Part shown: piece by piece, positions 16,271 through 38,590 of the stretch
How positions within the stretch are numbered: the stretch's first letter is position 1
Layout of the letters: the number at the start of each line of letters is the position of its first letter
Assembly (NCBI GenBank): GCA_031428975.1
Contig: JANOYR010000062.1
Location: 11,368-75,367, forward strand
DNA length: 64,000 nt
Reading direction: 5' to 3'
From: Polaromonas sp.
GTDB lineage: Bacteria; Pseudomonadota; Gammaproteobacteria; Burkholderiales; Burkholderiaceae_C
The notes under the pieces: generated by a model
What the model was told of the DNA's origin: nothing
What the model saw: only the letters and a program-made list of their open reading frames with translations
Database searches by the model: none
Made by a program: the position numbers and the translations under genes

Positions 16271-16286
16271 TGTAAATACCGAACTG

Positions 16287-18187: not shown

Positions 18188-18240
18188 CTCTGCTTGACTG
18201 CTATTTGGCCGTTGCTTGTGCACCAATTGACTTGCTTTAC

Positions 18241-18260: not shown

Positions 18261-18271
18261 AAGGAAACAAC

Positions 18272-20313: not shown

Positions 20314-20384
20314 ACGCTACATGGGCATAGCGGCCAGCTGCTACAGCCCTGTGCGAGAATAAGACAAACCTAAAGGCTTTTCCC

Positions 20385-21122
20385 TTGCTTGCGCCCACAA
20401 CCCACCCAGTCCATGGCAATCCGCCACATGCAGATCGCCTGCGCTTGTCAGACAATGTGTATGACCAACTGCTGGGTGACATCATTGCCGCAAAAATCAG
20501 CGTGGGGGAACGTTTACCCGCCGAAACCCTACTGGCGCAGCGATTTGCAGTCTCTCGTCCAGTCGTCCGCGAAGCACTTTTGCGGCTGCAAAACGACGGT
20601 GTGGTGGTCTCGCGCCAAGGCTCTGGCAGTTATGTGCAGCGCAGCCCCTCGCCACGCGCAGGCGAGCTTACCCGACAGGTGAGCTTGCATGAAGCATTGC
20701 AAAGCTTTGAAATACGCCTGAATTTAGAAGAGTTGTCCGCGCGCTTAGCCGCACGACATCGCACCGACGCACAGCTCAAAGATATCATCGACAAAGCGCA
20801 GCACTTTGCGGCAGTATTTGGTCAAAGCGGCGCTGCCATGGAAGCAGATTATGCATTTCACCGCAGTATTGCCAGCGCCTCAGGGAATGTGCTTTTAGCG
20901 GAAACACTGGATCAGCTGTCTGACCGTTTCAAAAGCGGCATGCACATCACACTGAGCCTGACACGCGCCGCATCGGCAAGTCGCCGAGAACGCGTGCTCG
21001 ATGAACACGAGCGCATTGTGCGGGCTATACGCGTCAGCGATGCAGACAGCGCTGCTATTGCCATGCGCTACCATATCGACCAAGCACGCAACCGTTTACT
21101 TGACGGGCAATTAGACCGCTAG
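20385..21122 (+). CDS. GntR/FadR-family transcriptional regulator
   Basis: 245-aa ORF. ERLPAETLLAQRFAVSRPVVREALLRLQNDGVV HTH plus an FCD-like domain. The frame has no ATG before the HTH (TTG at 20385), so the exact start is uncertain. Confidence 0.8.
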   Translation: MLAPTTHPVHGNPPHADRLRLSDNVYDQLLGDIIAAKISVGERLPAETLLAQRFAVSRPVVREALLRLQNDGVVVSRQGSGSYVQRSPSPRAGELTRQVSLHEALQSFEIRLNLEELSARLAARHRTDAQLKDIIDKAQHFAAVFGQSGAAMEADYAFHRSIASASGNVLLAETLDQLSDRFKSGMHITLSLTRAASASRRERVLDEHERIVRAIRVSDADSAAIAMRYHIDQARNRLLDGQLDR

Positions 21123-21161
21123 GTGAGCGTATCGCAGGTGCTCGAATTTTTCGCCTTCAAC

Positions 21162-21181
21162 TTGTCAAACAAATTTGACAA
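21162..21181. promoter_or_regulatory. FadR-type operator: TTGTCAAA-caaa-TTTGACAA (contains TTGTCAAACAA)
   Basis: A perfect 8-bp inverted repeat with a 4-nt spacer. TTGTCAAACAA fits TnGTnnnACnA exactly. It is downstream of the GntR gene and upstream of the lactonase gene. Confidence 0.5.
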
Positions 21182-21220
21182 ATTTTAGGAATTTGTTTTA
21201 CAAATTATTGATTTATGCTA

Positions 21221-21237
21221 AACTTGTCAAACAAGTT
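21221..21237. promoter_or_regulatory. FadR-type operator: AACTTGT-CAA-ACAAGTT (second TTGTCAAACAA box)
   Basis: A perfect 7-3-7 palindrome holding the same 11-mer, TTGTCAAACAA. It lies 38 nt upstream of the ATG at 21275. Confidence 0.5.
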
Positions 21238-21274
21238 GAAATTTATCAACTTGAAAAATCGAAAGAGACTTGAC

Positions 21275-22393
21275 ATGACACCCTCCCAGCCCTCCAGCTC
21301 TCGCCGCACCCTTTTACGCTCAGCCGCTGCCACTGGCTTTAGCGCTATGGCTTACTCCGTAGGTGCGCAATCCTTTGATTTCAAACCCAATCAGCGCTAC
21401 CCTGATCCATCGGTTTTCATCCTAGACCCGAGCTTTGCCAAATACCGCTTTTATAGCAGCACAGTGGAGCAACTTGGCTCTGGTATGCGCTGGGCCGAGG
21501 GTCCCGCGTATTTTCCTGGTGAAGCGGGTAAGGCCGGGTATTTGCTGTGCAGCGACATTCCCAACAACCGCTTGATGAAATTTGACGAGGGCACTAATAA
21601 GCTCACGGTCCACAAAGACAATGTCAACTATGCCAACGGCAATACCCGCGACCGCCAAGGTCGTCTGATCTCGTGCGAGCACTCGATCACCCGACGCGTG
21701 GTGCGCACCGAAAAAGACGGCAAAATGACGGTTCTGGCAGACAGCTTTGAAGGCAAACGCCTCAATGCGCCCAACGACATTGTGGTCAAATCGGACGAGA
21801 GTATCTGGTTTACCGACCCCTTGTTTGGCATCAATGGTGAATGGGAGGGCAGCCGCGCCAAGCCCGAGCAGGCCACCACTAATGTTTACCGAATTGACAA
21901 AGGCGGCAAAATCACCGCAGTGATTACCGACATTTTCAACCCCAATGGACTGGCGTTCTCACCTGACGAGAAAAAGCTTTATGTCGTGGAATGGAAGGGG
22001 ACGCCCAACCGCAGTATCTGGAGCTTTGATGTGGCAGCTGACGGTAGCTGCGCCAACAAAGTAAAACTGATTGATGCGGACGGTCCAGGCGCATTCGACG
22101 GTTTTCGCGTTGACCGCGATGGCAACCTGTGGTGCGGCTGGGGCTACAACGGCTCATTTCAACCAACTGCCACCGATATTGGTGGTGGCATGAAAGCCCA
22201 CCTGCAAAACGCAAAAACCGAAGACTACGATGGCGTGAAGGTCTTCAATGCGACGGGTAAACCCATTGGCTTTATCCGCCTGCCAGAGCGCTGCTCCAAT
22301 CTTGAGTTTGGTGGCTCCAAACGCAACCGCCTGTACATGACCAGTTCGCATTCGCTGTACGCCTTGTACGTCGAATCGCATGGCGCAGTGTAG
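21275..22393 (+). CDS. SMP-30/gluconolactonase/LRE-family lactonase with twin-arginine signal peptide
   Basis: I prefer the ATG at 21275, because the ATG at 21215 would start inside the operator palindrome. MTPSQPSSSRRTLLRSAAATGFSAMAYSVGA is Tat-like. It also has the WAEGPAY, NDIVV and PNGLAFSPDE motifs. Confidence 0.82.
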   Translation: MTPSQPSSSRRTLLRSAAATGFSAMAYSVGAQSFDFKPNQRYPDPSVFILDPSFAKYRFYSSTVEQLGSGMRWAEGPAYFPGEAGKAGYLLCSDIPNNRLMKFDEGTNKLTVHKDNVNYANGNTRDRQGRLISCEHSITRRVVRTEKDGKMTVLADSFEGKRLNAPNDIVVKSDESIWFTDPLFGINGEWEGSRAKPEQATTNVYRIDKGGKITAVITDIFNPNGLAFSPDEKKLYVVEWKGTPNRSIWSFDVAADGSCANKVKLIDADGPGAFDGFRVDRDGNLWCGWGYNGSFQPTATDIGGGMKAHLQNAKTEDYDGVKVFNATGKPIGFIRLPERCSNLEFGGSKRNRLYMTSSHSLYALYVESHGAV

Positions 22394-22405
22394 GACAAGG
22401 ATCCC

Positions 22406-23878
22406 ATGGCCTATTTACAGTCTTATTTAGCCCGTACAGGTGAGGCACTTGGTGCCCCGCTTTTAGCTAGCAGCGCCGACTTTGTCAAAGCAAGCGTGTT
22501 AGCAGCCGAATCGGCGTTTTCATGCTGGCAGAACAGCAGCGGACTAGTGCGCGCGGTTTTGCTGCGTGGCTTGGCCAGTGCGCTAGAGCAAGACCGAACT
22601 GGCCTAGTCGAATTGGCTGACCTAGAAACTGCGCTGGGCGCAACGCGGCTCAACGGAGAGCTCGACCGCACGGCGTTTCAACTGCGCAGATTTGCCGACT
22701 TGGCCGAGCATGGCGCTGCGTTTGATGTGCTGAGCGAGCCTGCTGTTGCAGGTGCGCCCCCTGTGGGTCACCCTGCCATGGTGCGCCTGTGGATGCCACT
22801 AGGGCCCGTGGCCATGTTTTCTGCCAGCAATTTCCCTTTTGCTTTCTCTGTGCTGGGCGGAGACACCGCTTCTGCTCTAGCCGCAGGTTGCAGTGTGGTG
22901 GTGAAGGCGCATTCTGCCCACCTGCTTTTATCGATCCGCGTCTTTGCACTGGCACAAGAAGTACTACGCGTCCAAGAGCTGCCCGCTGGTCTGCTAGGCA
23001 TGGTGCAAGGCAGTGGTGCAGATGTGGGAGTGCGGCTGCTGGCGCACCCTGCAATAGCTGCTGGGGCTTTCACTGGGTCTACGCGGGGTGGCGCCGCCCT
23101 GCAAGCCGTAGCCAATGCGCGGCCACGTCCTATTCCGTTTTATGGTGAGTTGGGGTCAATTAACCCTTTGGTCGCCTTGCCATCTATCTTGGCGGCCAAA
23201 GGGGCTGAGTTAGCCACTGTGCTGGCAGGCTCAATGTGCGCTGGATGCGGCCAATTTTGCACCAGCCCAGGCTTAATCGTGTTGATGCAAGACCCGGCCA
23301 GCGGTGCATTTGTGGAACACCTCAGCCGTGCTTTGGCCGCACAGGCTCCGCATGCCATGCTGACCGCTGGCATGCGCACCGCTTTTGATGCAGGCACTGC
23401 CCATATGCTAGAGCAAGGCGCTGTAGCACTGTTGCACGAGGCAGGAAGCCAAGAGGCGCCCAAGCCCTTTTTAGCGCAGGTGGGTGCACAGCAGTTCATA
23501 GCCCAACCTGCGCTGCGTGAGGAAGTATTTGGTCCGGCAGCCTTGGTCGTGTGGGCTAGCGGCCTCCAAGAGGTGCTAGAAGTACTCAACGCAGTAGGCG
23601 GTAGCCTCACGGTCACGCTATGGGGCGCTGACCAAGACACCGCCGACACCCGGGCACTGGTGCGCGGTGCGATGTCGATTGCTGGACGCGTGCTATTTGC
23701 TGGCGTGCCTACTGGCGTAGCAGTCACTGCGGCTCAGCAGCACGGTGGCCCATGGCCAGCATCTACCCAGCCCATGACCACATCGGTGGGCAACGCTGCA
23801 CTAGAGCGCTTTTTACGCCCAGTCGCCCTTCAAGATGCGCCCGATTGGCTATTGGCACGTAGCGGCCAGCCCTGCTAA
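22406..23878 (+). CDS. NAD(P)-dependent aldehyde dehydrogenase, alpha-ketoglutarate-semialdehyde dehydrogenase-like
   Basis: 490-aa ORF. SNFPFAFS..VVVKAHSAH..FTGSTRGG..ELGSINP..CGQFCTSPG match the KGSADH branch of the ALDH superfamily. Confidence 0.82.
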   Translation: MAYLQSYLARTGEALGAPLLASSADFVKASVLAAESAFSCWQNSSGLVRAVLLRGLASALEQDRTGLVELADLETALGATRLNGELDRTAFQLRRFADLAEHGAAFDVLSEPAVAGAPPVGHPAMVRLWMPLGPVAMFSASNFPFAFSVLGGDTASALAAGCSVVVKAHSAHLLLSIRVFALAQEVLRVQELPAGLLGMVQGSGADVGVRLLAHPAIAAGAFTGSTRGGAALQAVANARPRPIPFYGELGSINPLVALPSILAAKGAELATVLAGSMCAGCGQFCTSPGLIVLMQDPASGAFVEHLSRALAAQAPHAMLTAGMRTAFDAGTAHMLEQGAVALLHEAGSQEAPKPFLAQVGAQQFIAQPALREEVFGPAALVVWASGLQEVLEVLNAVGGSLTVTLWGADQDTADTRALVRGAMSIAGRVLFAGVPTGVAVTAAQQHGGPWPASTQPMTTSVGNAALERFLRPVALQDAPDWLLARSGQPC

Positions 23879-23913
23879 GATTTAACAACACCGATCACTA
23901 CTACAAGGAAACC

Positions 23914-24642
23914 ATGGCACTGAACCCGATTACCCGCGACAAGCTCAAAACCGTCAGCACCGCCACCCTGTGCACCGCACTGTTCAAGCGCGGGCTGCGC
24001 AACCAATTCATTCAAGACGTGCGGCCAGTGAACACCGACCTGACGGCCAAGCAACCCAATATGGTGGGCGAGGCTTTTACGCTGCGCTATATTCCCGCGC
24101 GTGAGGATTTGAACCCGATTGCCGTTTTTCAAGACCGCAGCCACCCCCAGCGCGTGGCCGTGGAGCAGTGCCCCCCGGGTGCGGTGATGGTGTTTGACAG
24201 CCGCAAAGACGCGCGTGCCGCCTCGGCGGGCTCTATATTGATCTCGCGCTTGATGGTGCGCGGCTGCGCGGGCGTGGTGACCGATGGTGGCTTTCGTGAT
24301 TCGCCCGAAATAGCGGCCATGCCCTTCCCCGCCTACCATGCGCGGCCCTCTGCCCCCACCAACCTCACGCTGCACCAAGCGCTGGACATCAATGTACCCA
24401 TTGGCTGTGGTGACGTAGCAGTGTGGCCCGGCGACGTGGTGGTGGGCGACAAAGAAGGTGTATTCATTATTCCCGCGCACGTAGCCGACGAGATTGCCGC
24501 TGAGGCGGTGGAGATGACGGCATTTGAAGACTTTGTGCTTGAAAAAGTATTAGAAGGGCGCGGCATTTTGGGGCTTTATCCCCCCACCGAGCAGCAATCC
24601 AAAGACGATTTTGCAGCTTGGCGCATAGCCAAAGGACGTTGA
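23914..24642 (+). CDS. RraA-like protein (HMG/CHA pyruvate-aldolase family)
   Basis: 242-aa ORF. RBS aaggaaacc. STATLCTALFKRG..GAVMVFD..VVTDGGFRD..GDVVVGDKEGV are typical of the long RraA/aldolase family. Confidence 0.75.
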   Translation: MALNPITRDKLKTVSTATLCTALFKRGLRNQFIQDVRPVNTDLTAKQPNMVGEAFTLRYIPAREDLNPIAVFQDRSHPQRVAVEQCPPGAVMVFDSRKDARAASAGSILISRLMVRGCAGVVTDGGFRDSPEIAAMPFPAYHARPSAPTNLTLHQALDINVPIGCGDVAVWPGDVVVGDKEGVFIIPAHVADEIAAEAVEMTAFEDFVLEKVLEGRGILGLYPPTEQQSKDDFAAWRIAKGR

Positions 24643-25740: not shown

Positions 25741-26508
25741 TCAAACTTTTGACCAGACGCTGATACCGTCTAGCAGCAGCGCCAATCCTTCCTCAAACGC
25801 TGCGATTGCGCTTAACTGCGCGAAGGCGTCTGCAACATAGTGCACAGCAGGAAACAAATCGACTGGCGTTTCTAGTAGTTTTGTCCGAATAAAGGCTGCG
25901 TGGTCTGACGGTAGCTGGTGACGGGCTTGCGCAGCGCTGCTAGAAACCACATGCTGCATTAGCAAGTGGTATGCCATGGCGACGCGTTCAGGCGATAGCC
26001 CTGTACTCTGCAAAAGCCGTGCCATTTGCTCAAATAGGGCAAGGCTGTAATTGATTTCCCCCTCGGCAACGATCTGGAAAAGGCGAAATCTGTTGTGCTC
26101 GACCAAATACGTTGCTACACCGCTGTAGCGCTGATTGAGTGCAAAAATCGTGCGTGACATGGCTTCGATTTGCGTGCGCCAGTCGCCGTTGGGCACGCCT
26201 AGCTGCTCAGCCCTAGCCTTGGCAAATAAATTGACCACACCAGAGATCAAACTGTCGCGGTCTTTGATGTAGTAATAAATCAATGCAGGCGTGACCTTTA
26301 AGTCATTGGCAAGCACGCTAAATGAGAGATCGGCGAGTGAATAAACGCGCGTCAGGTCAAACGCATGCTCCAAAATCGAAAGCCTAGAAAGGCTCTGCTG
26401 GGCACTGCCCACACCTACTTGCATCAAGATGCGTCCGCTTGTGGGGCGCCCAGGGCGGCGCACGGAGGATGTGGGGCTTATACCAGCCTTGGGTTTTGCA
26501 GATTTCAT
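25741..26508 (-). CDS. TetR-family transcriptional regulator
   Basis: ATG at 26508; the ORF-track start at 26520 is a GTG. N-terminal HTH region (ILEHAFDLTRVYSLADLSFSVLANDLKVTPALIYYYIKDRDSLI). Confidence 0.85.
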   Translation of the reverse strand: MKSAKPKAGISPTSSVRRPGRPTSGRILMQVGVGSAQQSLSRLSILEHAFDLTRVYSLADLSFSVLANDLKVTPALIYYYIKDRDSLISGVVNLFAKARAEQLGVPNGDWRTQIEAMSRTIFALNQRYSGVATYLVEHNRFRLFQIVAEGEINYSLALFEQMARLLQSTGLSPERVAMAYHLLMQHVVSSSAAQARHQLPSDHAAFIRTKLLETPVDLFPAVHYVADAFAQLSAIAAFEEGLALLLDGISVWSKV

Positions 26509-26634
26509 TTGATTTATCACAACAGTATTTTACAGTTACAGAAGACTTATTAACTATCCATTAATTTGTAATTGACAATCTCAAGAAAGGATGGCAATAT
26601 CGATATTAATTCTAAATTAATTAAATAGCATGCT

Positions 26635-27915
26635 ATGACATTATCAACAAAAAACGAGGCATCATCTTCACTGCAAGCTACCGCAGGCATGCGCGGCGTT
26701 CACTGGAACGAGCAGCGAATGGCGCGGCCGTACCGCCTTACGCTGCACCAACTGCGCACGGCTGACGGCCAACAAACAACGGGCTACCTTTACAGCCAAA
26801 CTGGCAATGAAAAAAGTGTGGTCTGCATCATGCACCCTCGCGAGTTGGGAGTGACGCACTATCTAGTGCCCGATATTTTGGACGCGGGCTACGCCTGCTG
26901 GATACAAGGTGCTCGCTCGGTAGGCAACGACCTGCGACTAGAGCACGAAACCGCCCTGTTTGATGTGGCCACTGGTATGACGCACTTGCACGCAGCTGGC
27001 TTTAGCGATGTTGTGCTACTGGGCAACTCAGGTGGTGCGGCTTTGTACGGTTTGTATACCCAACAGGCTGGACTATCACCTGAGCGCCGTATTGCTACCA
27101 CCCCCGCTGGCAGACCAACGAAACTGGATAATCTTGCCATGCCACTGCCCAGTCGCTTGGTATTCTTATCGCCCCATCCGGGGCCTGGCGCACTGCTGAT
27201 GGCTTGCATTGATGCATCCGCCGACAGCGAAACCGATCCGTTTTCCACAGTTGCGTCATTAAATCCGTTTTCTAAAGAAAATGGGTATGATGTCAGCGTC
27301 AAACAGTCAAAGTATGCTACTTATTTTGTAGCAAATTACCGCTTAGCGCAGCGCGAGCGAGTGGCTCGGATCGACGCTTTTGCCCATAGTTTGTTAGAGC
27401 GCAAAGCCAATGCTCGCAAGGCGCTTAAAAATGCAGCACCAGATCAAGCGTCCAACGAAAAGAATCAAATTGAAGCCGCCTTCGCACCGATTTTTCAGGT
27501 TTGGCGCACCGACGCAGACCTGCGCAGCTGGGATACCAGCATAGACTCATCTGACCGCAAAACTGGCTCACTATGGGGCAACGACCCGATTGCATCTAAC
27601 TACGGCAGCGTGGCATTTGGTCGTGTAGTTACACCCGAATCGTGGCTATCGACCTGGTCGGGATTATCGTCCAACGCAAGTTTTGAAAAATTTGGCATGG
27701 GTTTGGAGCAGCCCACACTGGTGGTGGAATACAGCGGCGACCAAGCGGTTTTTCCCGCTGATTTAGACTACATCTACGCCAGCATTGGCAGCAGCCTTAA
27801 AACCCGCCACCGCGTACGGGGCAACCACCACGGCCATCCGCTGGCCGCTGGTGAGGAGTCAGGCCAAGTCGCGGCTGGGCGAATGATAGGCCAATGGCTC
27901 AAGGAGTCAGCATGA
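26635..27915 (+). CDS. Alpha/beta-hydrolase-fold protein of unknown specificity
   Basis: 426-aa ORF. Nucleophile elbow LGNSGGA (G-x-S-x-G) and C-terminal GDQ..RGNHHG, candidate Asp/His residues. Its stop overlaps the ligase ATG (ATGA). Confidence 0.7.
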   Translation: MTLSTKNEASSSLQATAGMRGVHWNEQRMARPYRLTLHQLRTADGQQTTGYLYSQTGNEKSVVCIMHPRELGVTHYLVPDILDAGYACWIQGARSVGNDLRLEHETALFDVATGMTHLHAAGFSDVVLLGNSGGAALYGLYTQQAGLSPERRIATTPAGRPTKLDNLAMPLPSRLVFLSPHPGPGALLMACIDASADSETDPFSTVASLNPFSKENGYDVSVKQSKYATYFVANYRLAQRERVARIDAFAHSLLERKANARKALKNAAPDQASNEKNQIEAAFAPIFQVWRTDADLRSWDTSIDSSDRKTGSLWGNDPIASNYGSVAFGRVVTPESWLSTWSGLSSNASFEKFGMGLEQPTLVVEYSGDQAVFPADLDYIYASIGSSLKTRHRVRGNHHGHPLAAGEESGQVAAGRMIGQWLKESA

Positions 27916-29573
27916 ACAGCATGAGGCCCATTGGCGTGCGCCAGCCCATAGCAGGCGTGGTGTACCCCCCCGCTGACCGCTTAGCGCACTATATCAAACA
28001 AGGTGCCTTGGGAGTTCAAAGCCTCACCCAAGCGTTCACGACCGCATTTGCTGAGCATGGCAGCAGGGTCGCCATCAGCGGGCCAGAAGGCAATATGACC
28101 TATGCCCAGCTAAATGTGACTACTAGCCGCGTTGCTGCGGGTTTGATTGGTCTTGGCCTCAAGCCGCTGGATCGGGTCATTTTTCAGATGAGCAATTGTG
28201 CCGAGGTGTTGATTTGTTTCATAGCTTGCCTAAAGGCTGGCTTGATCCCCGTATGTACCCTGGCCCCTCACCGCGAACGTGAGATCGGCTATTTAGCTAA
28301 GCATGCCCAAGCCGTAGCCCATATCGTGCGTGGCGACGATCCACGCTTTGATGAAATCGCCTTCGCGCAGAAGATGCAACCACAAGCACCTACTCTACGC
28401 CACATCATTCAAACCCGTGGTGTACCTCAAGCAGGCACAGTTCAATTATCGAATTTAATAGCAAACAATGACCATTTGACAGTGACATTGCCCAAAATAG
28501 AGATGGATCCGTTCCAAGTAGCCGTATTTCAACTCTCAGGCGGAACATCTGGCGTACCCAAGATCATTCCACGGTTTCACAACGACTATGTGTGCCACAT
28601 GCAGGCAGTGTCCAAAGCCTGCGGCTTCACGGCGGATGACCGCATTTTTAACCCCCTGCCCATGATGCACAACCTGAATATGGGCTGTTTCTATGGCCCT
28701 GCACTGCTGTGCGGGGCCACGGTGTGCGTCACGCCAGACATGCAAAACACATCATTGGTGCGTATTTTTAAGGAACAAAAACCCACTTGGGTAATGCTCA
28801 CTGACCCGATCATCGCCAAGCTGCAAGTTGAAATTGATGCAGGCGAAATCAGTTTTACAGACCTGCGCGGTATTGTTGGCCCCAACAGCGCCCCGAAGAT
28901 GCGCGCGCTGACAGGCGCAGCCGCTTTCCATATATTTGGCATGACCGAAGGCGTCATCGCCTATACCCAGCCCCAGCATCCGCAGGCTGCGCTAGACCAG
29001 ACAGTGGGACAACCCGTGCACAGCCTCGATGAGATTCGCATAGTAAAAAGCGGGAGTGATCCGCACAATGGCCAGCTAGCAGCAGAAGGCGAAATGGGTG
29101 ATGCACAGTTTCGCGGCCCGTACACCATCCATGGCTACTATGCAGCACCAGAGCGCCAAGCGGAGTCGTTCACCAGCGACGGATGGTACTGCTCAGGCGA
29201 CTTAATGAGTTGGCGTGATATTGACGGCCAGCGTTATTACAGTTTCCAAGGCCGCACCAAAGACGTGGTGGACCGAGGCGGCGAGAAAATCAGTGCCGAA
29301 GAAGTAGAGTGGGCTTGTAATGCGCACCCAGCAGTGGCCGCCGCTGGCGTCATACCCATGCGCGATGCGGTGCTGGGTGAAAAAGTGTGTGTGTTCGTGG
29401 TGCTGAAAAACGGCTTTACGTCACTTTCTGTAGAGCAACTGGGCAACCATTTGCAAGAGTGGGGAATGGCCAAATTCAAATGGCCTGAACGCGTGGAATG
29501 CATTGCCCAAATGCCACTGACGCAATCGGGCAAGATGTCCAAACCAGATTTGCGGGCGTTGATTGAAGCCTAA
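27912..29573 (+). CDS. Aryl-acid adenylating enzyme / CoA ligase, EntE-DhbE-like (ANL superfamily)
   Basis: ATG at 27912 with aaggag RBS. FQLSGGTSGVPKIIPRFH (A3 motif), GMTEG, YYSFQGRTKDVVDRGGEKI (A8) and SGKMSK (A10). The N-terminal half parallels EntE as I recall it. Confidence 0.85.
   Translation: MNSMRPIGVRQPIAGVVYPPADRLAHYIKQGALGVQSLTQAFTTAFAEHGSRVAISGPEGNMTYAQLNVTTSRVAAGLIGLGLKPLDRVIFQMSNCAEVLICFIACLKAGLIPVCTLAPHREREIGYLAKHAQAVAHIVRGDDPRFDEIAFAQKMQPQAPTLRHIIQTRGVPQAGTVQLSNLIANNDHLTVTLPKIEMDPFQVAVFQLSGGTSGVPKIIPRFHNDYVCHMQAVSKACGFTADDRIFNPLPMMHNLNMGCFYGPALLCGATVCVTPDMQNTSLVRIFKEQKPTWVMLTDPIIAKLQVEIDAGEISFTDLRGIVGPNSAPKMRALTGAAAFHIFGMTEGVIAYTQPQHPQAALDQTVGQPVHSLDEIRIVKSGSDPHNGQLAAEGEMGDAQFRGPYTIHGYYAAPERQAESFTSDGWYCSGDLMSWRDIDGQRYYSFQGRTKDVVDRGGEKISAEEVEWACNAHPAVAAAGVIPMRDAVLGEKVCVFVVLKNGFTSLSVEQLGNHLQEWGMAKFKWPERVECIAQMPLTQSGKMSKPDLRALIEA
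28458..28495 (+). repeat. 38-nt repeat family, copy I (in frame inside the ligase gene)
   Basis: ATAGCAAACAATGACCATTTGACAGTGACATTGCCCAA, 33/38 identical to copy B. It is translated as IANNDHLTVTLP just upstream of the A3 motif. Confidence 0.85.
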
Positions 29574-29641
29574 AGCCCTAAGCCTATAAATCGCACTGGG
29601 ACTGCACACAGCGCACCAGAAAATATAAAGGAATTAATGCC

Positions 29642-30238
29642 ATGACTAAAACCACATTAAACGGCGTGCACCATTCCGCCCGCCCCACATGGAAACTCGA
29701 AGAAACTGTTACTTTTTACCGTGACAAAATGGGTTTGCCACTCGTTCACGCCATATCTGCCAAAGGCTGGGGGCCTGATAACCATGCCGATTTTTTGCAT
29801 TTCTTTTTTGACAGTGGCGGTGGCAGTACTATTGCATTTTTTTATTACATAGGCACGCAGCAACCCGACTGGGCTAAACCGCGTGAACATTATCAATACG
29901 TCGCCACGCATACGGCTTGGCAAGTCAACACGCGCGAGGAGCTGCTGGCTTGGCGCAGCAAAATAGAAGCTGCCGGCATTGAGTTTCAGTTCCAAATTGA
30001 ACACGAAGTCATCGAATCGATTTACTTCAAAGACCCCAACGGCTACCCCATGGAAATCGCTTGGCAGATGCGGCCATTTTCAAAGCTTGACCACCATGAT
30101 GCAAAGCGCACCCTGCAAGCGGCCATTGCCGCCGAACACGCTGGCAAGCAGGGCATTGCAGCCTTCACCTCTATCGAGCCGGTGTGGTTGCGCAAAGCGC
30201 AAGAAATTGCAGCAGATTTTGACAAAGCGGGGATTTGA
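29642..30238 (+). CDS. VOC (glyoxalase/bleomycin-resistance/extradiol-dioxygenase) superfamily protein, single domain plus C-terminal tail
   Basis: 198-aa ORF. NGVHHSARPT..TVTFYRDKMGL..HTAWQV..YFKDPNGYPMEI fit a VOC beta-alpha-beta-beta-beta module with His/Glu metal-ligand candidates. Confidence 0.7.
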   Translation: MTKTTLNGVHHSARPTWKLEETVTFYRDKMGLPLVHAISAKGWGPDNHADFLHFFFDSGGGSTIAFFYYIGTQQPDWAKPREHYQYVATHTAWQVNTREELLAWRSKIEAAGIEFQFQIEHEVIESIYFKDPNGYPMEIAWQMRPFSKLDHHDAKRTLQAAIAAEHAGKQGIAAFTSIEPVWLRKAQEIAADFDKAGI

Positions 30239-30242
30239 AAAA

Positions 30243-30515
30243 ATGGCTACCTTATTTGTCTTGGATGTTCCAGAATTTAGCGCAATCGTTCGCCATTGCC
30301 AAACTGATGCAAGCTTTCAAGTAAGTGTCCCCAAGCTTGGGTATTGGCGTATTGTGCGGGCAGGCGAGATCACCCTATACCGGAAAGAGCTAGGTTTCAA
30401 GCACGCCGTTTGGTACGGGGTGGCCACAGGCGGCTTGCTGGGTCACATCACGCAGTTTGACCAACAAGCTTTGGTCATTTCTGACACACCAGCAGGAGCA
30501 ATACATGAAGATTGA
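30243..30515 (+). CDS. Small hypothetical protein (90 aa), no recognisable domain
   Basis: An internal ATG at 30243 in ORF 29979-30515, 5 nt after the VOC stop. It overlaps the monooxygenase start by 11 nt. Tight operon packing is the only support. Confidence 0.45.
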   Translation: MATLFVLDVPEFSAIVRHCQTDASFQVSVPKLGYWRIVRAGEITLYRKELGFKHAVWYGVATGGLLGHITQFDQQALVISDTPAGAIHED

Positions 30516-31680
30516 CGTGATTGGCGCAGGGCCAGCTGGGCTCTATTTGTCGATGCTGGTCAAAAAGCGGCAACCAAACTGGAGCGTGACTGTATACGAA
30601 CAAAACGCCCCCAATGCCAGCTTTGGTTTTGGCGTGGTGGTAGCAGATGCAGGTTTGGCGCGGCTGCGCCAAGTAGATGCAGCCAGCCACGATGCATTGG
30701 TGTCCAATATGCGTTTTACCAACACACAAACCATAGTGCAAAAGGAGCAGGCAATTGACTTGCGGCAAGACAGCCCCAGTGGTGGTGCAATCAAGCGCTT
30801 GGATTTGCTGCGCGTACTAGGCGATGCTGCACTGGCTGCAGGGGTTAGCGTACATTACGGCCAGCGCATCAATGATTTTGCCGCATTGGATGCTGACTTG
30901 TTAGTAGGCGCAGACGGTGTCAATTCTGCTTTGCGCAATGCCAACGAGGCAGCTTTTGGCACGACACGCAGCCTGCTGACCAACCACTTTGCTTGGTTTG
31001 GCACATCACGCGTATTTGACAACCCTGCCTTGGTATTTCGCCGCTTTGAACACGCTGGACATGTAGGCTATGCTGTGGCGCATTACTACCCCTACTGTGA
31101 CAACATGAGCACTTTTGTAGCTGAATGCGACCACGGCACGTGGCTGCGCATGGGGTTAGAAACCGCATCTGATTGGCAGCGCCAAGCCCTCTTTGAGGTT
31201 GTATTCGCTCCCGAGCTGGCCGGTCACACTCTGCAAGCTAACAACAATACCCTGAACACCGTTTGGCGGCAGTTTCCAGTGGTGCGAAATGTCCAGTGGA
31301 CATCTGGCAACCAAGTTTTATTGGGAGATGCGCAGTCTAGCGCCCATTTTTCAATTGGCTCAGGCACGCGCATCGCCATGGAAGATGCAGCTGCGCTGGC
31401 CCAAGCCCTGCTGACACATAGCAAAAGTGTGCAAGATGCGTTAACTAGTTTTGTACAAACACGCAAACCTTTCAAAGACCGCCTAATTGCTGCATCACAG
31501 CTATCCTATGAATGGTATGAATGCATGGAACGACACATGGAAGCACTTTCCCCGCATGCCTTTGTGCACAGTTACATGACGCGCACTGGCAGGGTGGACA
31601 ATGCAAAATTAGCATTGCAATTCCCAGAATTCATGGCGCAATGGGCATATGAGCAACGCATTAAAATACTCACCATTTGA
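30505..31680 (+). CDS. FAD-dependent monooxygenase resembling the hydroxylase module of aryl-CoA (2-aminobenzoyl-CoA / salicylyl-CoA type) monooxygenases
   Basis: ATG at 30505 with aggag RBS. MKIDVIGAGPAGLYLSMLVKKRQPNWSVTVYEQN..FGFGVV, then GADGVNS and LLGDAQSSAHFSIGSGTRIAMEDAAAL. The specific family assignment is from memory of the N-terminal pattern. Confidence 0.75.
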   Translation: MKIDVIGAGPAGLYLSMLVKKRQPNWSVTVYEQNAPNASFGFGVVVADAGLARLRQVDAASHDALVSNMRFTNTQTIVQKEQAIDLRQDSPSGGAIKRLDLLRVLGDAALAAGVSVHYGQRINDFAALDADLLVGADGVNSALRNANEAAFGTTRSLLTNHFAWFGTSRVFDNPALVFRRFEHAGHVGYAVAHYYPYCDNMSTFVAECDHGTWLRMGLETASDWQRQALFEVVFAPELAGHTLQANNNTLNTVWRQFPVVRNVQWTSGNQVLLGDAQSSAHFSIGSGTRIAMEDAAALAQALLTHSKSVQDALTSFVQTRKPFKDRLIAASQLSYEWYECMERHMEALSPHAFVHSYMTRTGRVDNAKLALQFPEFMAQWAYEQRIKILTI

Positions 31681-31717
31681 TAGCAAGCATTGACCATATT
31701 ACGGTGACATTGTATGA
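31680..31717 (+). repeat. 38-nt repeat family, copy C
   Basis: ATAGCAAGCATTGACCATATTACGGTGACATTGTATGA, 29/38 identical to copy B. It spans the whole spacer from the monooxygenase stop (TGA ends 31680) to the thioesterase ATG (31714). Confidence 0.88.
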
Positions 31718-32211
31718 ATATCTCTCAAAATCTTGCTATCGTAGAGCAAGTCATCAGTGTGCAGCCATTTGTGGTGCGTCGCCGCGTGATTTGGGGTGAG
31801 ACAGATGCCGCTGGAGTGGTCTACACCAACCGCTACATGGACTATACGGCTTCGGCCAATATGCTGTTTATGGCGCATGCTTTGGGTGAAGGACAAGGTT
31901 TAACGCTTACCCAAGCCAAGCAACGCCACGGCATTGGCACGCCATGTAAAGCGCTAAGCGCCGTATTCTACGCACCACTGCGCTGTGACGAACTCTTTGA
32001 CATGCGGGTACAGGTCAGCCGCATTGGCAACACCACGTTTGAGCTACAGGTTATAGCTACGGATTTGCAAGACAAACCGCTCTTTGAAGGCCGTAACACT
32101 ATTATCACTATCGGCCATTCAGACGGCAATGCCACACGGGCTGCTGTTCCCGTGCCAAACGCGGTACGTCAAGCGCTGCAAGCCTATGTACGCACACCAC
32201 CGATTGCATGA
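31714..32211 (+). CDS. Hotdog-fold acyl-CoA thioesterase (4HBT/YbgC type)
   Basis: 165-aa ORF. VIWGETDAAGVVYTNRY is the 4HBT-type catalytic Asp region. Confidence 0.8.
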   Translation: MNISQNLAIVEQVISVQPFVVRRRVIWGETDAAGVVYTNRYMDYTASANMLFMAHALGEGQGLTLTQAKQRHGIGTPCKALSAVFYAPLRCDELFDMRVQVSRIGNTTFELQVIATDLQDKPLFEGRNTIITIGHSDGNATRAAVPVPNAVRQALQAYVRTPPIA

Positions 32212-32224: not shown

Positions 32225-33037
32225 CTATATGCTCAACAAAGCACCATCGACCACAATATCTGCGCCGTTGACCAAACGCGATTCGTTGGATGCTAAAAAT
32301 ACTACCGCATAGGCAACATCGTCGGGCTCCCCCAAACATTGAAAAGGGTGCAAATCCTTCAAAGCTTGCACCGCCCTGTCTGCGCCTACATGCTTTGCTG
32401 CCGCATTCTCACTAAGCGGAGTTCTGATATAGCAAGGATGGATAGCATTAATGCGGATGTTATAGCTTTTTTTAGCACACATCACGGCCGCTTGCTTGGT
32501 GAGACTGCGTACACCGCCCTTGCTTGCGCCGTACGCCGAACCTCCCGGCGTTCCCACGTAGGCGGCCACAGAGCCAATATTGATAATTGAACCACCACCC
32601 GAATCCTTCATCAAAGCTACCGCTTCACGCATGCCTAAGAACGTACCATCTAAATTAACGTCCATGATGCGTCTCCAGTCTTCAAAGCTAGTCAGCTCAA
32701 ACGATGGTGGGGGCGGTAGCGCGATGCCTGCATTGTTGACCAACACATCTATTTTTCCAAAACGTTTGACAGTCTGGGCTAGCACGTCGCGCCAACTGGT
32801 TTCTAGTCGCACATCAAGTTGAAAAAATGCAGCAGGAATACCTTGATCATGCAATATTTTTAATGCCGCATCTGCGTGCGCGAATCCGACATCGCTTAAA
32901 ACTACGGCAGCGCCATCTTGCCCTAATCGCAGTGCAATCGCAGCGCCTATGCCACCTAAAGCTCCAGTAATCAAGACAACTTTACCTTGGACGCGCCCTA
33001 TGCGTGACACGCTAGGATGCATATTTTTATCCATCAT
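32225..33037 (-). CDS. Short-chain dehydrogenase/reductase (SDR)
   Basis: 270-aa ORF. VLITGALGGIGAAIA, NNAG and YGASKGG motifs. Confidence 0.88.
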   Translation of the reverse strand: MMDKNMHPSVSRIGRVQGKVVLITGALGGIGAAIALRLGQDGAAVVLSDVGFAHADAALKILHDQGIPAAFFQLDVRLETSWRDVLAQTVKRFGKIDVLVNNAGIALPPPPSFELTSFEDWRRIMDVNLDGTFLGMREAVALMKDSGGGSIINIGSVAAYVGTPGGSAYGASKGGVRSLTKQAAVMCAKKSYNIRINAIHPCYIRTPLSENAAAKHVGADRAVQALKDLHPFQCLGEPDDVAYAVVFLASNESRLVNGADIVVDGALLSI

Positions 33038-34011
33038 TATTGTGGTTCAAGACCGACCTTTTTAATGACTGCGGCCCAACGCTCCACCTCGCTTTTGAGA
33101 AAAGCCGTAGAGTCGACTTGACTTTTTGGTGCGGGGAAAAGGCTGATATCGCGCATTTTGCCGACAATTTCGGGCAAAACCAGTACCCCATTCATATCCT
33201 TGTTGATCTTGGACGCCAAATCCGCAGGCATACCCTTAGGTCCCAACAATGAAAACCAACCAACTGCTACATAGTTGGGCACGACATCTTTAACCAACGG
33301 AATATCCTCCAAGCCTGGCAAACGCACCGCAGTGGTGACGGCTATAGGCTTGATACGCCCAGCTTTTACCAAAGGCAATAGTGGCGCAATGCCGTCCACA
33401 TAATAGTGCAAATCACCTTTTACTAACGCTGCAATAGCTTGCGCGGGTTGGTTAAATGGCACATGTTGCAAACTGACCCCTGTACCCTCCGCAATACTAT
33501 GCCCAACTAGAAATGGCAGCGTCGCCTGTTCGGGGCTACCAAAAGGAGTTGCGCCAGGTTTTGCTTTTGCTGCTTTGATCATGTCTGGCAAATTTTTAGC
33601 GCCAAGGTCGTTGTTCGCCACAATCATCATGGGTGAATCAGCCACAATGCCCAGAGTAGTGAAGTCATTGACAGGGTCATACTTCGCTGCTTTAAGAATT
33701 TTAGGGGTAACCAGCACCGCACCAGCATGGGCGAACATGAATGTGTGGGTATCAGCCGAGTCTTTCACAAAATTCATGGCGATCATGCCACCTGCACCCG
33801 GGCGATTGTCAATTACTACTGGTTGCCCCCATAATGCTGAAAGGCGTTCACCCACCATGCGCGCTGCAACATCTGGCACGGTACCTGCTGGTGCCCCTAA
33901 GACCAGTTTAATGGGTTTACTGGGCCAGCTCGATTGAGCACATGCAATGCCGATGCTGCTCGTAGCAACTGCTGCTACGATGATGGTTTTAAAAAATTGG
34001 CTGCGTTTCAT
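33037..34011 (-). CDS. Bug-family (TctC-like) solute receptor
   Basis: ATG at 34011 with aaggag RBS; the ORF-track start at 34062 lies inside the upstream gene. MKRSQFFKTIIVAAVATSSIGIACA signal peptide, then WPSKPIKLVLGAPAGTVPDVAAR. Confidence 0.88.
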   Translation of the reverse strand: MKRSQFFKTIIVAAVATSSIGIACAQSSWPSKPIKLVLGAPAGTVPDVAARMVGERLSALWGQPVVIDNRPGAGGMIAMNFVKDSADTHTFMFAHAGAVLVTPKILKAAKYDPVNDFTTLGIVADSPMMIVANNDLGAKNLPDMIKAAKAKPGATPFGSPEQATLPFLVGHSIAEGTGVSLQHVPFNQPAQAIAALVKGDLHYYVDGIAPLLPLVKAGRIKPIAVTTAVRLPGLEDIPLVKDVVPNYVAVGWFSLLGPKGMPADLASKINKDMNGVLVLPEIVGKMRDISLFPAPKSQVDSTAFLKSEVERWAAVIKKVGLEPQ

Positions 34012-34048
34012 AGTGAAGTCTCCTTGGTGGTTTACAGTTAAAAAGAAA

Positions 34049-34975
34049 TTAAAGTTTGACACTCATTTGGCCTTTTAGTCCTAGCATGGCGCGTGCCTCG
34101 TTGGGAGTGGCTATTTCTAAACCCAGTGACTCCAAAATGCTTCGGATGAGTTTGACTTGATCAGCGTTGCTTGTGGCTAACTCGCCGCGTCCAAGGTACA
34201 GCGAGTCTTCTAGCCCTACACGCACATTACCCCCCATCAACGCGGCTTGGGTAATCAGTGGCATTTGCCTGCGTCCCGCACCCAACACAGACCATAAGTA
34301 GTTATCGCCAAATAACTTGTCTGCAATACGCTTCATGTGCGTAAGATTCTCTGCGTCACCTCCAATTCCGCCCAGCACACCCAGCACGAATTGAATAAAT
34401 GGATTTTTGACATACCCACGTTTAACAAAATGCTCTAGCGTGTATAAGTGACCCACGTCGTAACACTCAAATTCAAAACGAGTACCTAAGGGCTTAGCTA
34501 CTCGCTCAAAGAGTTGCTCAATATCACCAAAAGTATTGCGGAAAAAACCATTGCGCGAGCCTTCCAAAAATTTGGGCTCCCATGGATATTTCCAATCGGT
34601 CATTTTTTCTGCGGCAGGAAAAAAACCAAAATTCATAGTGCCCATGTTGCATGAAGCCATTTCAGGCGCAATATCTAATGCGGCTTCAAGTCTCTGATCC
34701 ATGGTCATGGTGGCAGCCCCACCAGTCGTAATATTGATAACTGCATCAGTTTTCGCGTGGACAGGTGCAAGTGCCTCACGGTATAGCGCTGGTTCAAATG
34801 CTGGGCTTCCGTCTTCTGGATTGCGCACATGCAGATGTAAAACTGCAGCACCAGCCTGAGCGGCTGCAATCGACTCCCTCGCGATCTGTTCTGGTGTAAT
34901 AGGTAGATATGGTGACATGCTTGGCGTATGTATAGAACCAGTAATAGCGCAAGTGATGATGACTTTATGCGCCAT
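34049..34975 (-). CDS. Beta-keto acid cleavage enzyme (BKACE / 3-keto-5-aminohexanoate cleavage enzyme family, DUF849)
   Basis: 308-aa ORF. MAHKVIITCAITGSIHTPSMSPYLPITPEQIA..AGAAVLHLHVRNPEDG is the characteristic BKACE N-terminus. Confidence 0.82.
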   Translation of the reverse strand: MAHKVIITCAITGSIHTPSMSPYLPITPEQIARESIAAAQAGAAVLHLHVRNPEDGSPAFEPALYREALAPVHAKTDAVINITTGGAATMTMDQRLEAALDIAPEMASCNMGTMNFGFFPAAEKMTDWKYPWEPKFLEGSRNGFFRNTFGDIEQLFERVAKPLGTRFEFECYDVGHLYTLEHFVKRGYVKNPFIQFVLGVLGGIGGDAENLTHMKRIADKLFGDNYLWSVLGAGRRQMPLITQAALMGGNVRVGLEDSLYLGRGELATSNADQVKLIRSILESLGLEIATPNEARAMLGLKGQMSVKL

Positions 34976-34977
34976 AT

Positions 34978-35856
34978 CTATACTCCCAGCACTGGCTCAG
35001 CAACCACACGGTTTTCTATATGCCCTATTCCAGTTATTTCTGCACGTATCACATCCCCAATTTTTAAAAACTGTGGGGGCTTCATCGCTACGCCCACACC
35101 AGAAGGCGTGCCAGTGGCGATCAAATCACCTGGCTCTAGCGTGAATGCAGTGCTTAAATGTTCGATTTGCTGCCAAATGTTGTACACCATGCAGCTTGTA
35201 GACTCCGCTTGGCGTAATTGTCCATTTACCAGCAGCCGCATAGCTAAGCTGTGGGGATCTGGTACTTCGTCTGCTGTGACTATCCAAGGACCAATCGGAC
35301 CCGTGGTGTTGAACGACTTACCCATGGTCATAGTCGGTGAACGCATCTGCCAGTCACGCACAGTTACATCGTTAGCCACCATATATCCTGCCACTACGCT
35401 CGGTGCATCATCCGCTTTGACATGGCGGCAACGTTTTCCTATAACGACACACAGTTCTACTTCGTAATCAAGCTTGTTGGACGCTATAGGCAGATGCACA
35501 TCACCGTATGGCGAGTTGATACACGAAACCTGTTTGTTAAACCATACTTGTGTTTCTGGCACATTAATTCCAGCCGCTACTGCCTCAGCCACATGCTTTG
35601 CATAGTTCATGCCAATAGCCAAATACTTGGACGGATTGGGCACTGGTGCTAACAATTGCACATCGGCCAAAGGAATGGTGACGCTACTTGCTGCCACCAG
35701 AGCGCTGGTTCGCTGCATAGCCTGCGTACCAGACTGTAAAAGCGCCAGCATCGTATTTGGCAAACTTGCGTCCGATGCTGGCAAATCAATGACCTGTGAA
35801 GCAACTAATTTACCGATACTGACGCGGCCATGGTGTGAGAATGTACAAAGTTTCAT
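34978..35856 (-). CDS. Fumarylacetoacetate hydrolase (FAH)-family hydratase/decarboxylase/hydrolase
   Basis: 292-aa ORF. DYEVELCVVIGK..GKSFNTTGPIGPW..EPGDLIATGTPSGVG motifs. Confidence 0.85.
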   Translation of the reverse strand: MKLCTFSHHGRVSIGKLVASQVIDLPASDASLPNTMLALLQSGTQAMQRTSALVAASSVTIPLADVQLLAPVPNPSKYLAIGMNYAKHVAEAVAAGINVPETQVWFNKQVSCINSPYGDVHLPIASNKLDYEVELCVVIGKRCRHVKADDAPSVVAGYMVANDVTVRDWQMRSPTMTMGKSFNTTGPIGPWIVTADEVPDPHSLAMRLLVNGQLRQAESTSCMVYNIWQQIEHLSTAFTLEPGDLIATGTPSGVGVAMKPPQFLKIGDVIRAEITGIGHIENRVVAEPVLGV

Positions 35857-35862
35857 AGTGAT

Positions 35863-36807
35863 TTATTCAAAAAATTCAGGCGTAACTGGAGGAGCCCACT
35901 GCGAGAGGCCAGCAGGAGACAGCGGCATGTGGGTGCGAATATGATTTTGGTTGACCAAGTCTCCATCCGTCCAATGCTCAATTTTGTTGCCAAACGGGTC
36001 ACGCCAATAATCAAAGAGCTGGCTGCCCTGCACATGTCGGCCAACACCCCAACTGTGTTTCCAGCCCGTGGCTTTGAGGTGCGCATTACCAGTCATCAAA
36101 TCGTCTAGATCTGTCACCTCAAAAGCCACATGGTCAAAGCGTGGCGCCTCAATACCGCCAGGAGGCGAGCCAAACGCCAAGGTGTGGTGGTCAGTGAACG
36201 TATCCCCTAGTCCACAATGCAAAAAAGCGAATGTGGTGTGCGTAGGGTCTTCCATGTGGTACGAGTCAGATATTTCAAAACCTAGCACTTGGTGATAAAA
36301 ATCAAACATGGGTTGAAAATGTGGCACAAGTAAAACCAAATGCCCCAGACGCTGGATCTGCGATGGTGCTGTATTCACACGCAAGGAGGCACCTAAGCGC
36401 CGCCGAGAATCTGCGACATTGCACGCCAAAGATGGGCGACTTTCCAACAAAGGCAAGGTTTGCTGCCCATGAATTACCTCAACAGCAAAACCCGCCGGGT
36501 CACTGAAGCACACTTTCTCACCACCACCGGGTGCATCGCAAGTTTGTACTTTTTTTCCCAAATGACGCGCTAAGGTGTGCAAATCTTGCGCACTTTGGGC
36601 GCGCAAACCAAAGCCCAATGGGGCTGCCTGCGCAGTGCGCTGCGTAATATGTACATGGTGTGCACTGCCATGGGCTCGCATGTACAAATACTCTGCATTG
36701 CGTACGACGCAGCTCAGGCCAAAGTCTGTTAAAAATCGCTCCATCTGTTCTAAATCGGGTGCGCCATAACGTACATATGCAATATCTTGAATGGTGATGA
36801 CGGGCAT
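35863..36807 (-). CDS. Two-domain VOC-superfamily extradiol ring-cleavage dioxygenase
   Basis: 314-aa ORF. RLGHLVLLVP..FLHCG..DHHTLAF..FDHVAFEV..GVGRHVQGSQLFDYWRDPFGNKIEH fit type I extradiol dioxygenases. Confidence 0.8.
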   Translation of the reverse strand: MPVITIQDIAYVRYGAPDLEQMERFLTDFGLSCVVRNAEYLYMRAHGSAHHVHITQRTAQAAPLGFGLRAQSAQDLHTLARHLGKKVQTCDAPGGGEKVCFSDPAGFAVEVIHGQQTLPLLESRPSLACNVADSRRRLGASLRVNTAPSQIQRLGHLVLLVPHFQPMFDFYHQVLGFEISDSYHMEDPTHTTFAFLHCGLGDTFTDHHTLAFGSPPGGIEAPRFDHVAFEVTDLDDLMTGNAHLKATGWKHSWGVGRHVQGSQLFDYWRDPFGNKIEHWTDGDLVNQNHIRTHMPLSPAGLSQWAPPVTPEFFE

Positions 36808-38496: not shown

Positions 38497-38590
38497 GTGC
38501 GGATGCTAAAACATATAAAGTGATATAAAAAGATGGCAGAATAGTTTTATTGATACTTTTTTGTATTCACTAAACGGACAATCACTTTTC

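Follow-up and report, generated by a model that had tools for sequence, protein, structure and literature searches.

Salicylate and gentisate catabolism belongs to textbook aromatic biochemistry, and salicylic acid, which plants use as a defence signal, is removed by bacteria in the rhizosphere. In Rhizobium sp. X9, salicylate is converted to gentisate by CehGHI via salicylyl-coenzyme A (salicylyl-CoA). On plasmid pAt1 of Agrobacterium tumefaciens (L094), annotated cehG, cehH and cehI genes are followed by genes for an FAH-family protein, MaiA and a cupin gentisate dioxygenase. A locus of Streptomyces sp. N50 encodes a 789-amino acid (aa) fused hydroxylase of the SdgC type together with a ligase, a thioesterase and an FAH protein, and lacks the hydrolase, VOC and small genes that are described below. 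The ceh-type and sdg-type clusters possess a cupin gentisate dioxygenase, FAH or MaiA, and contain no hydrolase or VOC protein of the kind considered here. In this work, we analyzed an operon at positions 26635-32211 of a 64,000-nt stretch of a Polaromonas sp. contig (the window, that is, the whole stretch of DNA under analysis), with a TetR gene located upstream.

Based on homology and gene context, we assign a probability of roughly 0.55 to the reading that this operon specifies an almost complete pathway for the degradation of a benzoate resembling salicylate (2-hydroxy- or 2-substituted), which would proceed via gentisate, ring cleavage by a VOC protein and hydrolysis of the product by an alpha/beta hydrolase. 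The upper half of the route is of a known kind, namely CoA-dependent salicylate 5-hydroxylation of the Sdg/Ceh type. Full-text literature searches retrieved no description of the operon, nor did they show the enzyme families of the lower half described for gentisate; thus, the operon is apparently undescribed despite its wide distribution.

A preliminary description of the same DNA had reported a tightly packed operon under a divergent TetR gene. Open reading frame (ORF) and domain scans located all of its genes, including the ATGA overlap between the first two, and confirmed this observation. The locus comprises the following features:

25741-26520, minus strand: TetR-family regulator, divergent from the operon (TetR_C_1 match, 1e-09).
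26521-26634: AT-rich divergent intergenic region with the presumed promoters and operator.
26635-27915, plus strand: alpha/beta hydrolase of 426 aa from an unclassified family; proposed ring-fission-product (maleylpyruvate-type) hydrolase.
27912-29573, plus strand: EntE/DhbE-type aryl-acid adenylating enzyme (AMP-binding and AMP-binding_C domains); proposed salicylate-type aryl-CoA ligase.
29642-30238, plus strand: VOC-fold metalloenzyme of 198 aa (Glyoxalase, PF00903); proposed catalytic part of a hydroquinone-type (gentisate) dioxygenase.
30243-30515, plus strand: 90-aa protein that corresponds to the C-terminal module of the VOC protein, here encoded as a separate ORF.
30505-31680, plus strand: stand-alone group-A flavin monooxygenase (PRK08255 match); proposed aryl-CoA (salicylyl-CoA) 5-hydroxylase.
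31714-32211, plus strand: hotdog thioesterase of the YbgC/4HBT class (4HBT_2 match, 7e-12); proposed hydroxyaryl-CoA (gentisyl-CoA) thioesterase.

The ligase starts at the ATG in gcATGAac, preceded by AAGGAG, and overlaps the hydrolase stop codon by 4 nt, while the monooxygenase start, with AGGAG in front, overlaps the 90-aa ORF by 11 nt. The TetR protein probably starts downstream of its first GTG; its homologues (33-47% identity) flank the operon in most of the related loci, and it may repress the operon until an effector appears. Scans of the intergenic region for consensus promoters and inverted repeats gave nothing above background, and terminator scans likewise stayed at background level.

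Scanning one genome per species revealed 376 related loci, 80 of which were fetched; all counts out of 80 refer to this set, beside which ten further loci carrying the operon were examined. Gene content, homologies, conserved catalytic residues and the conservation and variation of the neighbourhood were established directly from these data. The gene set recurs in essentially all 80 loci, and the arrangement is therefore far from chance. The order hydrolase-ligase-VOC (with the small protein)-monooxygenase-thioesterase, with a TetR gene nearby, is almost invariant among hosts that include Cupriavidus, Paraburkholderia, Caballeronia, Variovorax, Polaromonas, Achromobacter, Bordetella and Pseudomonas. 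In Cupriavidus metallidurans CH34, the operon is located on the chromid at about 311.8-317 kb. A reordered version of the whole gene set is present in Rhodococcus, Streptomyces, Tistrella and Pseudosulfitobacter, and a Mycobacterium avium plasmid possesses only a partial set, with the hydrolase, ligase and thioesterase and a fused monooxygenase on the opposite strand. Thus, the operon is not rare but widespread and conserved in Beta-, Gamma- and Alphaproteobacteria and Actinobacteria. Homologues of the hydrolase numbered more than 2,800 among the candidates scored, with 852 cluster representatives at 50% identity. The closest relatives of the window operon are on two metagenome contigs (L005 and L007), where the hydrolase is 68-73% identical to that of the window.

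The preliminary description had interpreted the ligase, flavin monooxygenase and hotdog thioesterase as a system for CoA-dependent hydroxylation of an aryl acid, and this assignment is supported by the homology of the monooxygenase to CehH and by a salicylate-type cysteine in the ligase. Among the NCBIfam models, the ligase best matches 2,3-dihydroxybenzoate-AMP ligase TIGR02275 (360 bits vs. a cutoff of 723), and it scores 320 bits against PRK10946 (cutoff 783). Its best relatives in the PDB are the salicylate-AMP ligase 5wm2 (3e-86), DhbE, PchD and EntE, and in sequence comparison it groups with the EntE/DhbE/PchD/CahJ clade. With its motif HNLNMGC, the ligase has a Cys where DhbE has Ser240, as do the salicylate-activating enzymes CahJ and PchD, and this Cys is kept in nearly all ligase orthologues; in addition, a bulky Ile replaces a Val of DhbE. 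Work of May et al. from 2002 reportedly found that these DhbE positions discriminate salicylate from 2,3-dihydroxybenzoate, which we take as a lead and not as a test. No PP-binding, condensation or other non-ribosomal peptide synthetase (NRPS) genes were detected among the 38 window ORFs scanned or the called genes of the related loci.

Residues 1-380 of the monooxygenase match positions 1-380 of the 768-position model PRK08255 (E 1e-86), named 'bifunctional salicylyl-CoA 5-hydroxylase/oxidoreductase' in NCBIfam. Over its full length, the protein is 38% identical to the annotated CehH (E 5e-85), and it also matches VioD (3c4a) at 5e-40. The missing fused reductase domain, which had been regarded as a departure from the known scheme, is not one, since CehH is likewise a stand-alone protein of 380 aa. 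The thioesterase has weak matches to the structures of YbgC and 4-hydroxybenzoyl-CoA thioesterase and no similarity to CehI, of which it would be at most a functional analogue. On the Mycobacterium avium plasmid pP7a (L092:1989-3968), the monooxygenase homologue is extended at its C-terminus by an HbpS-like haem-degrading domain, giving a fusion of 659 aa. This fused protein, whose additional domain is unlike the SdgC reductase, faces the thioesterase-hydrolase-ligase trio.

The lower half of the proposed route is indicated by the gene that closes most of the related operons. In 58 of the 80 loci, an 'Amdase/Asp-Glu racemase' gene is located directly after the thioesterase gene on the same strand. 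Its product matches maleate cis-trans isomerase 4fq7 with 230 bits (E 3e-67) and retains both catalytic Cys motifs; the alternative assignment as an arylmalonate decarboxylase was rejected, since the match to that enzyme reaches only about 25 bits. With a maleate isomerase as its last gene, an operon should produce maleate, which implies ring cleavage of a hydroquinone-type acid followed by hydrolysis of the maleyl product. The window has no cupin gentisate dioxygenase gene, and its only FAH gene belongs to a separate, convergent cluster. Across the 80 genome loci and the ten others, a cupin gentisate dioxygenase gene adjoins the operon only in Streptomyces chartreusis, which is also the only exception to the absence of the classical lower-pathway genes from the operon loci.

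The best PDB match of the VOC protein is the 182-aa structure 9u42 (phmmer 8e-14, 26% identity; Foldseek 1.3e-10), whose depositors titled it 'homogentisate 1,2-dioxygenase from Acinetobacter'. Acinetobacter baumannii possesses a gene with 96% identity to the 9u42 fragment in the order fahA-maiA-VOC-IclR-hppD, where it occupies the position expected for hmgA, and in Sphaerotilus and Paraburkholderia largidicola a VOC gene of the 9u42 type is followed by fahA. The suggestion in the preliminary description that the VOC protein might cleave the ring gains support from both the similarity to 9u42 and the hmgA-like context in A. baumannii. Small VOC proteins from dioxygenase-type contexts are 29-40% identical to the window protein. 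In an alignment of nine sequences (the operon VOC and small VOCs), the His in each of the four motifs (xHxA, xHxFF, xHxA and xHxxxxSIY) and the Glu of the last motif are invariant, and the Tyr of SIY is also present in all nine. Alignments with 9u42 and the small VOCs, the AlphaFold2 (AF2) model and Foldseek concur in a VOC fold with a metal-binding His/His/Glu set and a second-sphere His/His/Tyr set, a pattern and spacing reminiscent of extradiol dioxygenases such as BphC.

The 90-aa protein had been considered an orphan. However, the window VOC protein and the 90-aa ORF align end to end with a 289-aa VOC protein of Cupriavidus and Paraburkholderia, the small protein corresponding to the C-terminal third. 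The two parts are fused in 42 and split in 24 of the 80 loci, so that both length classes are common, and the fused forms show that the small and the VOC protein act together. In L005 and L007, the closest relatives, the VOC is likewise split, with 4-nt overlaps. Since the closest relatives and 24 of the 80 loci share the same split, it is a natural gene fission; a frameshift or sequencing error at the junction, which lies near GGGG and AAAAAA runs, was rejected on the same grounds and given the coupled start and stop codons. The small protein has no match in Pfam or NCBIfam. A role as a carrier protein was also rejected, as there is no PP-binding match and the module is fused to the VOC protein elsewhere. 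In the AF2 model of the fused homologue P0280 (pLDDT 88, pTM 0.85), the C-terminal module has a beta-alpha-beta-beta-beta arrangement; since hhalign finds no relation between the module and the VOC domain (probability 0.5%), its VOC-like topology is drawn solely from the AF2 secondary structure.

Two further VOC arrangements were observed. In the closest relatives (L005:12455-16589), the operon is followed by TctC, sulfatase and maleate isomerase homologue genes and a second pair of VOC (199 aa) and small (82 aa) genes, and the split dioxygenase is thus duplicated there. On a Ralstonia solanacearum megaplasmid (L106:4998-9542), a small VOC gene, whose product is 40% identical to 9u42, heads a cluster with genes for tryptophan 2,3-dioxygenase, an FAD monooxygenase and aminotransferases, and this cluster adjoins a classical hmgA-fahA pair; small VOCs of this type are present in 99 Ralstonia records.

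The first gene of the operon encodes a protein with no match in Pfam or NCBIfam and none in a phmmer search of the PDB. Its AF2 model (pLDDT 82.8) has an alpha/beta-hydrolase fold, and the G-x-S-x-G elbow, Asp and His occur in the order typical of this superfamily: the GNSGG serine S132, D369 and H398/H399 are invariant among 21 aligned homologues. Foldseek relates the model with probability 1.0 to many generic alpha/beta hydrolases (TM at most 0.47, 10-16% identity), which gives no functional pointer. There is no Abhydrolase_1-type match, nor is any meta-cleavage product hydrolase found among the top 50 Foldseek matches that would place the protein with BphD or MhpC. Distant homologues show weak matches to Hydrolase_4 and Abhydrolase_6, and in those with 26-33% identity the Ser/Asp/His triad is retained along with many further invariant positions.

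The proposed C-C hydrolase function of this family comes from gene context only. Distant hydrolase genes are located directly downstream of small VOC genes in Cupriavidus necator N-1, Variovorax PBL-E5, Diaphorobacter and Bosea, downstream of hmgA in Rhodococcus oxybenzonivorans, and downstream of a cupin gene in R. opacus PD630, and none of these dioxygenase-hydrolase loci contains a ligase gene. Gene coordinates point to two more VOC-hydrolase pairs, in Variovorax SRS16 and Bosea sp. 685. The gene order in Variovorax PBL-E5 is TctC-VOC-hydrolase-FAD oxidoreductase-DUF2783, and that in Sphaerotilus is FAD oxidoreductase-DUF2783-TctC-VOC-fahA. Thus, the hydrolase takes the position that fumarylacetoacetase has in the Sphaerotilus cluster. 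The FAD oxidoreductase (about 550-565 aa) and the DUF2783 protein adjoin the small VOC in both loci (Variovorax, L099:3294-7917; Sphaerotilus, L105:3076-7865); together they presumably resemble MhaAB, the two-component 3-hydroxyphenylacetate 6-hydroxylase that yields homogentisate. More tentatively, with a likelihood that we place somewhat below even, the hydrolase may represent a new family of ring-fission-product (maleylpyruvate/maleylacetoacetate) hydrolases that, with small VOC dioxygenases and maleate isomerase, forms a thiol-independent lower pathway by which gentisate and homogentisate are degraded in many Proteobacteria and Actinobacteria and which is connected here to the CoA-dependent hydroxylation of salicylate.

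From homology and gene context we infer each catalytic step, the substrate and the regiochemistry of the route as follows. The EntE-type ligase would form an aryl-CoA thioester, which the CehH-like monooxygenase would hydroxylate para to the 2-substituent to give gentisyl-CoA (a 5-hydroxyaryl-CoA). The hotdog thioesterase would then release the free hydroquinone-type acid, gentisate. The VOC protein with its 90-aa module, acting as a non-cupin dioxygenase for hydroquinone-type substrates, would open the ring to maleylpyruvate, and the alpha/beta hydrolase would split the latter into maleate and pyruvate, with no thiol-dependent isomerase being involved. In most of the related operons, maleate cis-trans isomerase would finally produce fumarate; in the present case this enzyme may be encoded elsewhere or not at all.

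Several observations weigh against this scheme. The maleate isomerase gene is absent from the whole 64-kb window, and in S. chartreusis the module adjoins a complete classical gentisate pathway, next to which it would be redundant. The only experimental anchor for the function of the VOC protein is the title given to 9u42 by its depositors, and, in superpositions on the VOC model, methylmalonyl-CoA epimerases reach higher TM-scores than 9u42, albeit at lower identity. The scheme does not account for the role of the 90-aa module, which hhalign does not relate to the VOC domain. Regarding the hydrolase, its best structural matches are esterases, lipases and thioesterases and not known C-C hydrolases, and its gene is adjacent to or overlaps the ligase gene in the window, in Streptomyces (L091) and in M. 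avium (L092), which could reflect a functional link.

Such a link was suggested in the preliminary description, where the hydrolase coupled to the ligase was considered a possible acyl-transfer partner or second thioesterase. In this explanation, the hydrolase would transfer the acyl group from the aryl-AMP to CoA or serve as a proofreading thioesterase. The 4-nt ATGA overlap is indeed shared by the window and its closest relatives L005 and L007, and overlaps of 4 and 28 nt occur in the Streptomyces and M. avium loci, respectively. Furthermore, EntE-type enzymes normally need the thiol of a carrier protein, none of which is encoded nearby, and the Foldseek matches of the hydrolase include the thioesterase DcsB and the acyl-CoA hydrolase MpaH'. 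However, the coupling is not conserved: a TctC gene of about 1 kb separates the two genes in 24 of the 80 loci, the Cupriavidus and Paraburkholderia loci have gaps of 15-50 nt, and the neighbours of the hydrolase gene in Rhodococcus and Tistrella are the VOC and small protein genes, not the ligase gene. The wider hydrolase family accompanies dioxygenases at loci that have no ligase, and the related SdgA is said to have made salicylyl-CoA alone in the study by Ishiyama et al. from 2004. The hydrolase is thus probably not a partner of the ligase, and we regard this explanation as unlikely. The same low probability is given to an upstream esterase or amidase that would release the aryl acid from a conjugated form, for instance a salicylate ester, ahead of CoA activation. 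This role would agree with the first position of the hydrolase gene in the operon, with the chlorogenate and cinnamoyl esterases and monoglyceride lipases among its structural neighbours, and with the sulfatase gene near the operon in the closest relatives; but the transporters in the related loci are of carboxylate types (MFS, TctC and TRAP), suggesting uptake of the free acid, the recurrent dioxygenase-hydrolase pairs would be left unexplained, and the ring-fission product would lack a hydrolase despite the presence of maleate isomerase.

The remaining alternatives concern the substrate and the other enzymes. There is a small but appreciable chance that the same architecture serves another compound, either a 2-hydroxyphenylacetate- or phenylacetate-type acid converted to homogentisate or anthranilate converted to 5-hydroxyanthranilate: the VOC relative 9u42 bears the name of a homogentisate dioxygenase, the sequence does not reveal the substrate, and the monooxygenase family also includes 2-aminobenzoyl-CoA monooxygenase. 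Nevertheless, the ligase clade activates ring-attached carboxylates with an ortho-hydroxyl group and the Cys is typical of its salicylate-specific members, the closest annotated relatives of the hydroxylase act on salicylyl-CoA, and the operon VOC shares only 29-40% identity with VOCs of the homogentisate type and has an additional module. It is very unlikely that the VOC protein instead isomerises or epimerises a CoA-bound, possibly dearomatised product of the monooxygenase and thereby replaces the missing reductase domain. While 2-aminobenzoyl-CoA monooxygenase/reductase forms non-aromatic intermediates and the superposition of methylmalonyl-CoA epimerases on the VOC model reaches TM 0.59-0.66 on the target, these epimerases show only 15-18% identity and are far exceeded in sequence similarity by 9u42. 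The conserved His/His/Glu and His/His/Tyr pattern resembles that of extradiol dioxygenases such as BphC, and the maleate isomerase in the operon implies ring cleavage. Finally, a biosynthetic, siderophore-type aryl-capping system with its carrier protein encoded elsewhere is hardly credible: although the best curated model and the best structures for the ligase (EntE, DhbE and PchD) come from such systems, its score is half of the equivalog cutoff, PP-binding and NRPS genes are missing from the scanned neighbourhoods and related loci, and the TetR gene, carboxylate transporters, thioesterase and maleate isomerase form a catabolic context.

Beyond the operon, the window contains further catabolic-type gene clusters. 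A convergent, minus-strand cluster at 32225-39496 encodes an SDR protein, TctC, a BKACE enzyme, an FAH-family hydrolase, a two-domain VOC protein and a 562-aa FAD ring hydroxylase (Rng_hyd_C). This aromatic-type cluster also has a divergent LysR regulator, and its BKACE enzyme matches the NCBIfam equivalog '3,5-dioxohexanoate:acetyl-CoA acetone transferase' with 493 bits (cutoff 430). At 42683-46985, there are genes for an FAD monooxygenase (419 aa), TctC, a LysR regulator and an Amidohydro_2 protein, the latter representing the family of non-oxidative hydroxybenzoate decarboxylases. The plus-strand run at 12467-24642, with TRAP transporter genes and those for a DHDPS-like protein, an ILVD/EDD dehydratase, TctC, Ldh_2, GntR, an SMP-30 lactonase, an aldehyde dehydrogenase and an RraA-like aldolase, resembles a lower-pathway cluster for sugar acids or aromatic compounds. 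The at least five TctC/Bug receptors encoded within 64 kb fit the Burkholderiales origin of the DNA.

If the proposed route is correct, hundreds of species of Burkholderiales, Pseudomonas, Actinobacteria and Alphaproteobacteria would use an unrecognised, glutathione- and mycothiol-independent route from salicylate to fumarate and pyruvate. The VOC-type dioxygenase with its accessory module, the unclassified alpha/beta-hydrolase family and maleate isomerase would all be new for this pathway, and a function would be attached to a Pfam-less protein family of more than 2,800 members. Such an assignment would also improve the genome-based prediction of salicylate degradation and offer new parts for the bioproduction of maleate and gentisate. 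The operon introduces no new principle; it does yield a well-defined, testable functional prediction for the hydrolase family and the VOC-type gentisate dioxygenase.

Compared with the CehGHI system, the window operon has the same combination of a ligase, a stand-alone flavin hydroxylase and a hotdog thioesterase, the two hydroxylases being 38% identical. It differs in its ligase, as CehG is of the benzoate-CoA-ligase type and only 25% identical to the window enzyme, and in its thioesterase, which is unlike CehI; moreover, the ceh cluster lacks counterparts of the VOC, small protein and hydrolase genes and a maleate isomerase gene. With the Streptomyces sdg system, it shares a hydroxylase that matches the N-terminal half of PRK08255 (SdgC type), whereas the Old-Yellow-Enzyme-like reductase half is not part of the window monooxygenase; SdgA reportedly (Ishiyama and colleagues, 2004) is an AMP-ligase of the EntE-like type. 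EntE, DhbE and PchD themselves are the closest relatives of the window ligase in both sequence and structure. In contrast to them, the window ligase scores below the equivalog cutoffs and has no carrier or NRPS partner, and its catabolic context implies CoA as the acceptor.

In the lower half, the hydrolase resembles the FAH-family enzymes HbzF, NagK and FahA in its proposed reaction type and, in its distant homologues, in the position directly after a ring-cleaving dioxygenase gene, but belongs to the unrelated alpha/beta fold with a Ser-Asp-His triad and to no Pfam family. The maleate cis-trans isomerases of Pseudomonas putida S16 (Iso, 4fq7) and Nocardia farcinica (2xec) have their counterpart in the last gene of 58 of the 80 operons, from which the window operon departs by lacking it. 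The operon VOC protein agrees with Acinetobacter 9u42 in its fold, in the His, Glu and Tyr positions and in its ring-cleavage slot within a pathway for hydroquinone-type acids, and is distinguished by the extra module of about 90 aa, either fused or split, and by the CoA-dependent upper pathway; its substrate is likely gentisate rather than homogentisate.

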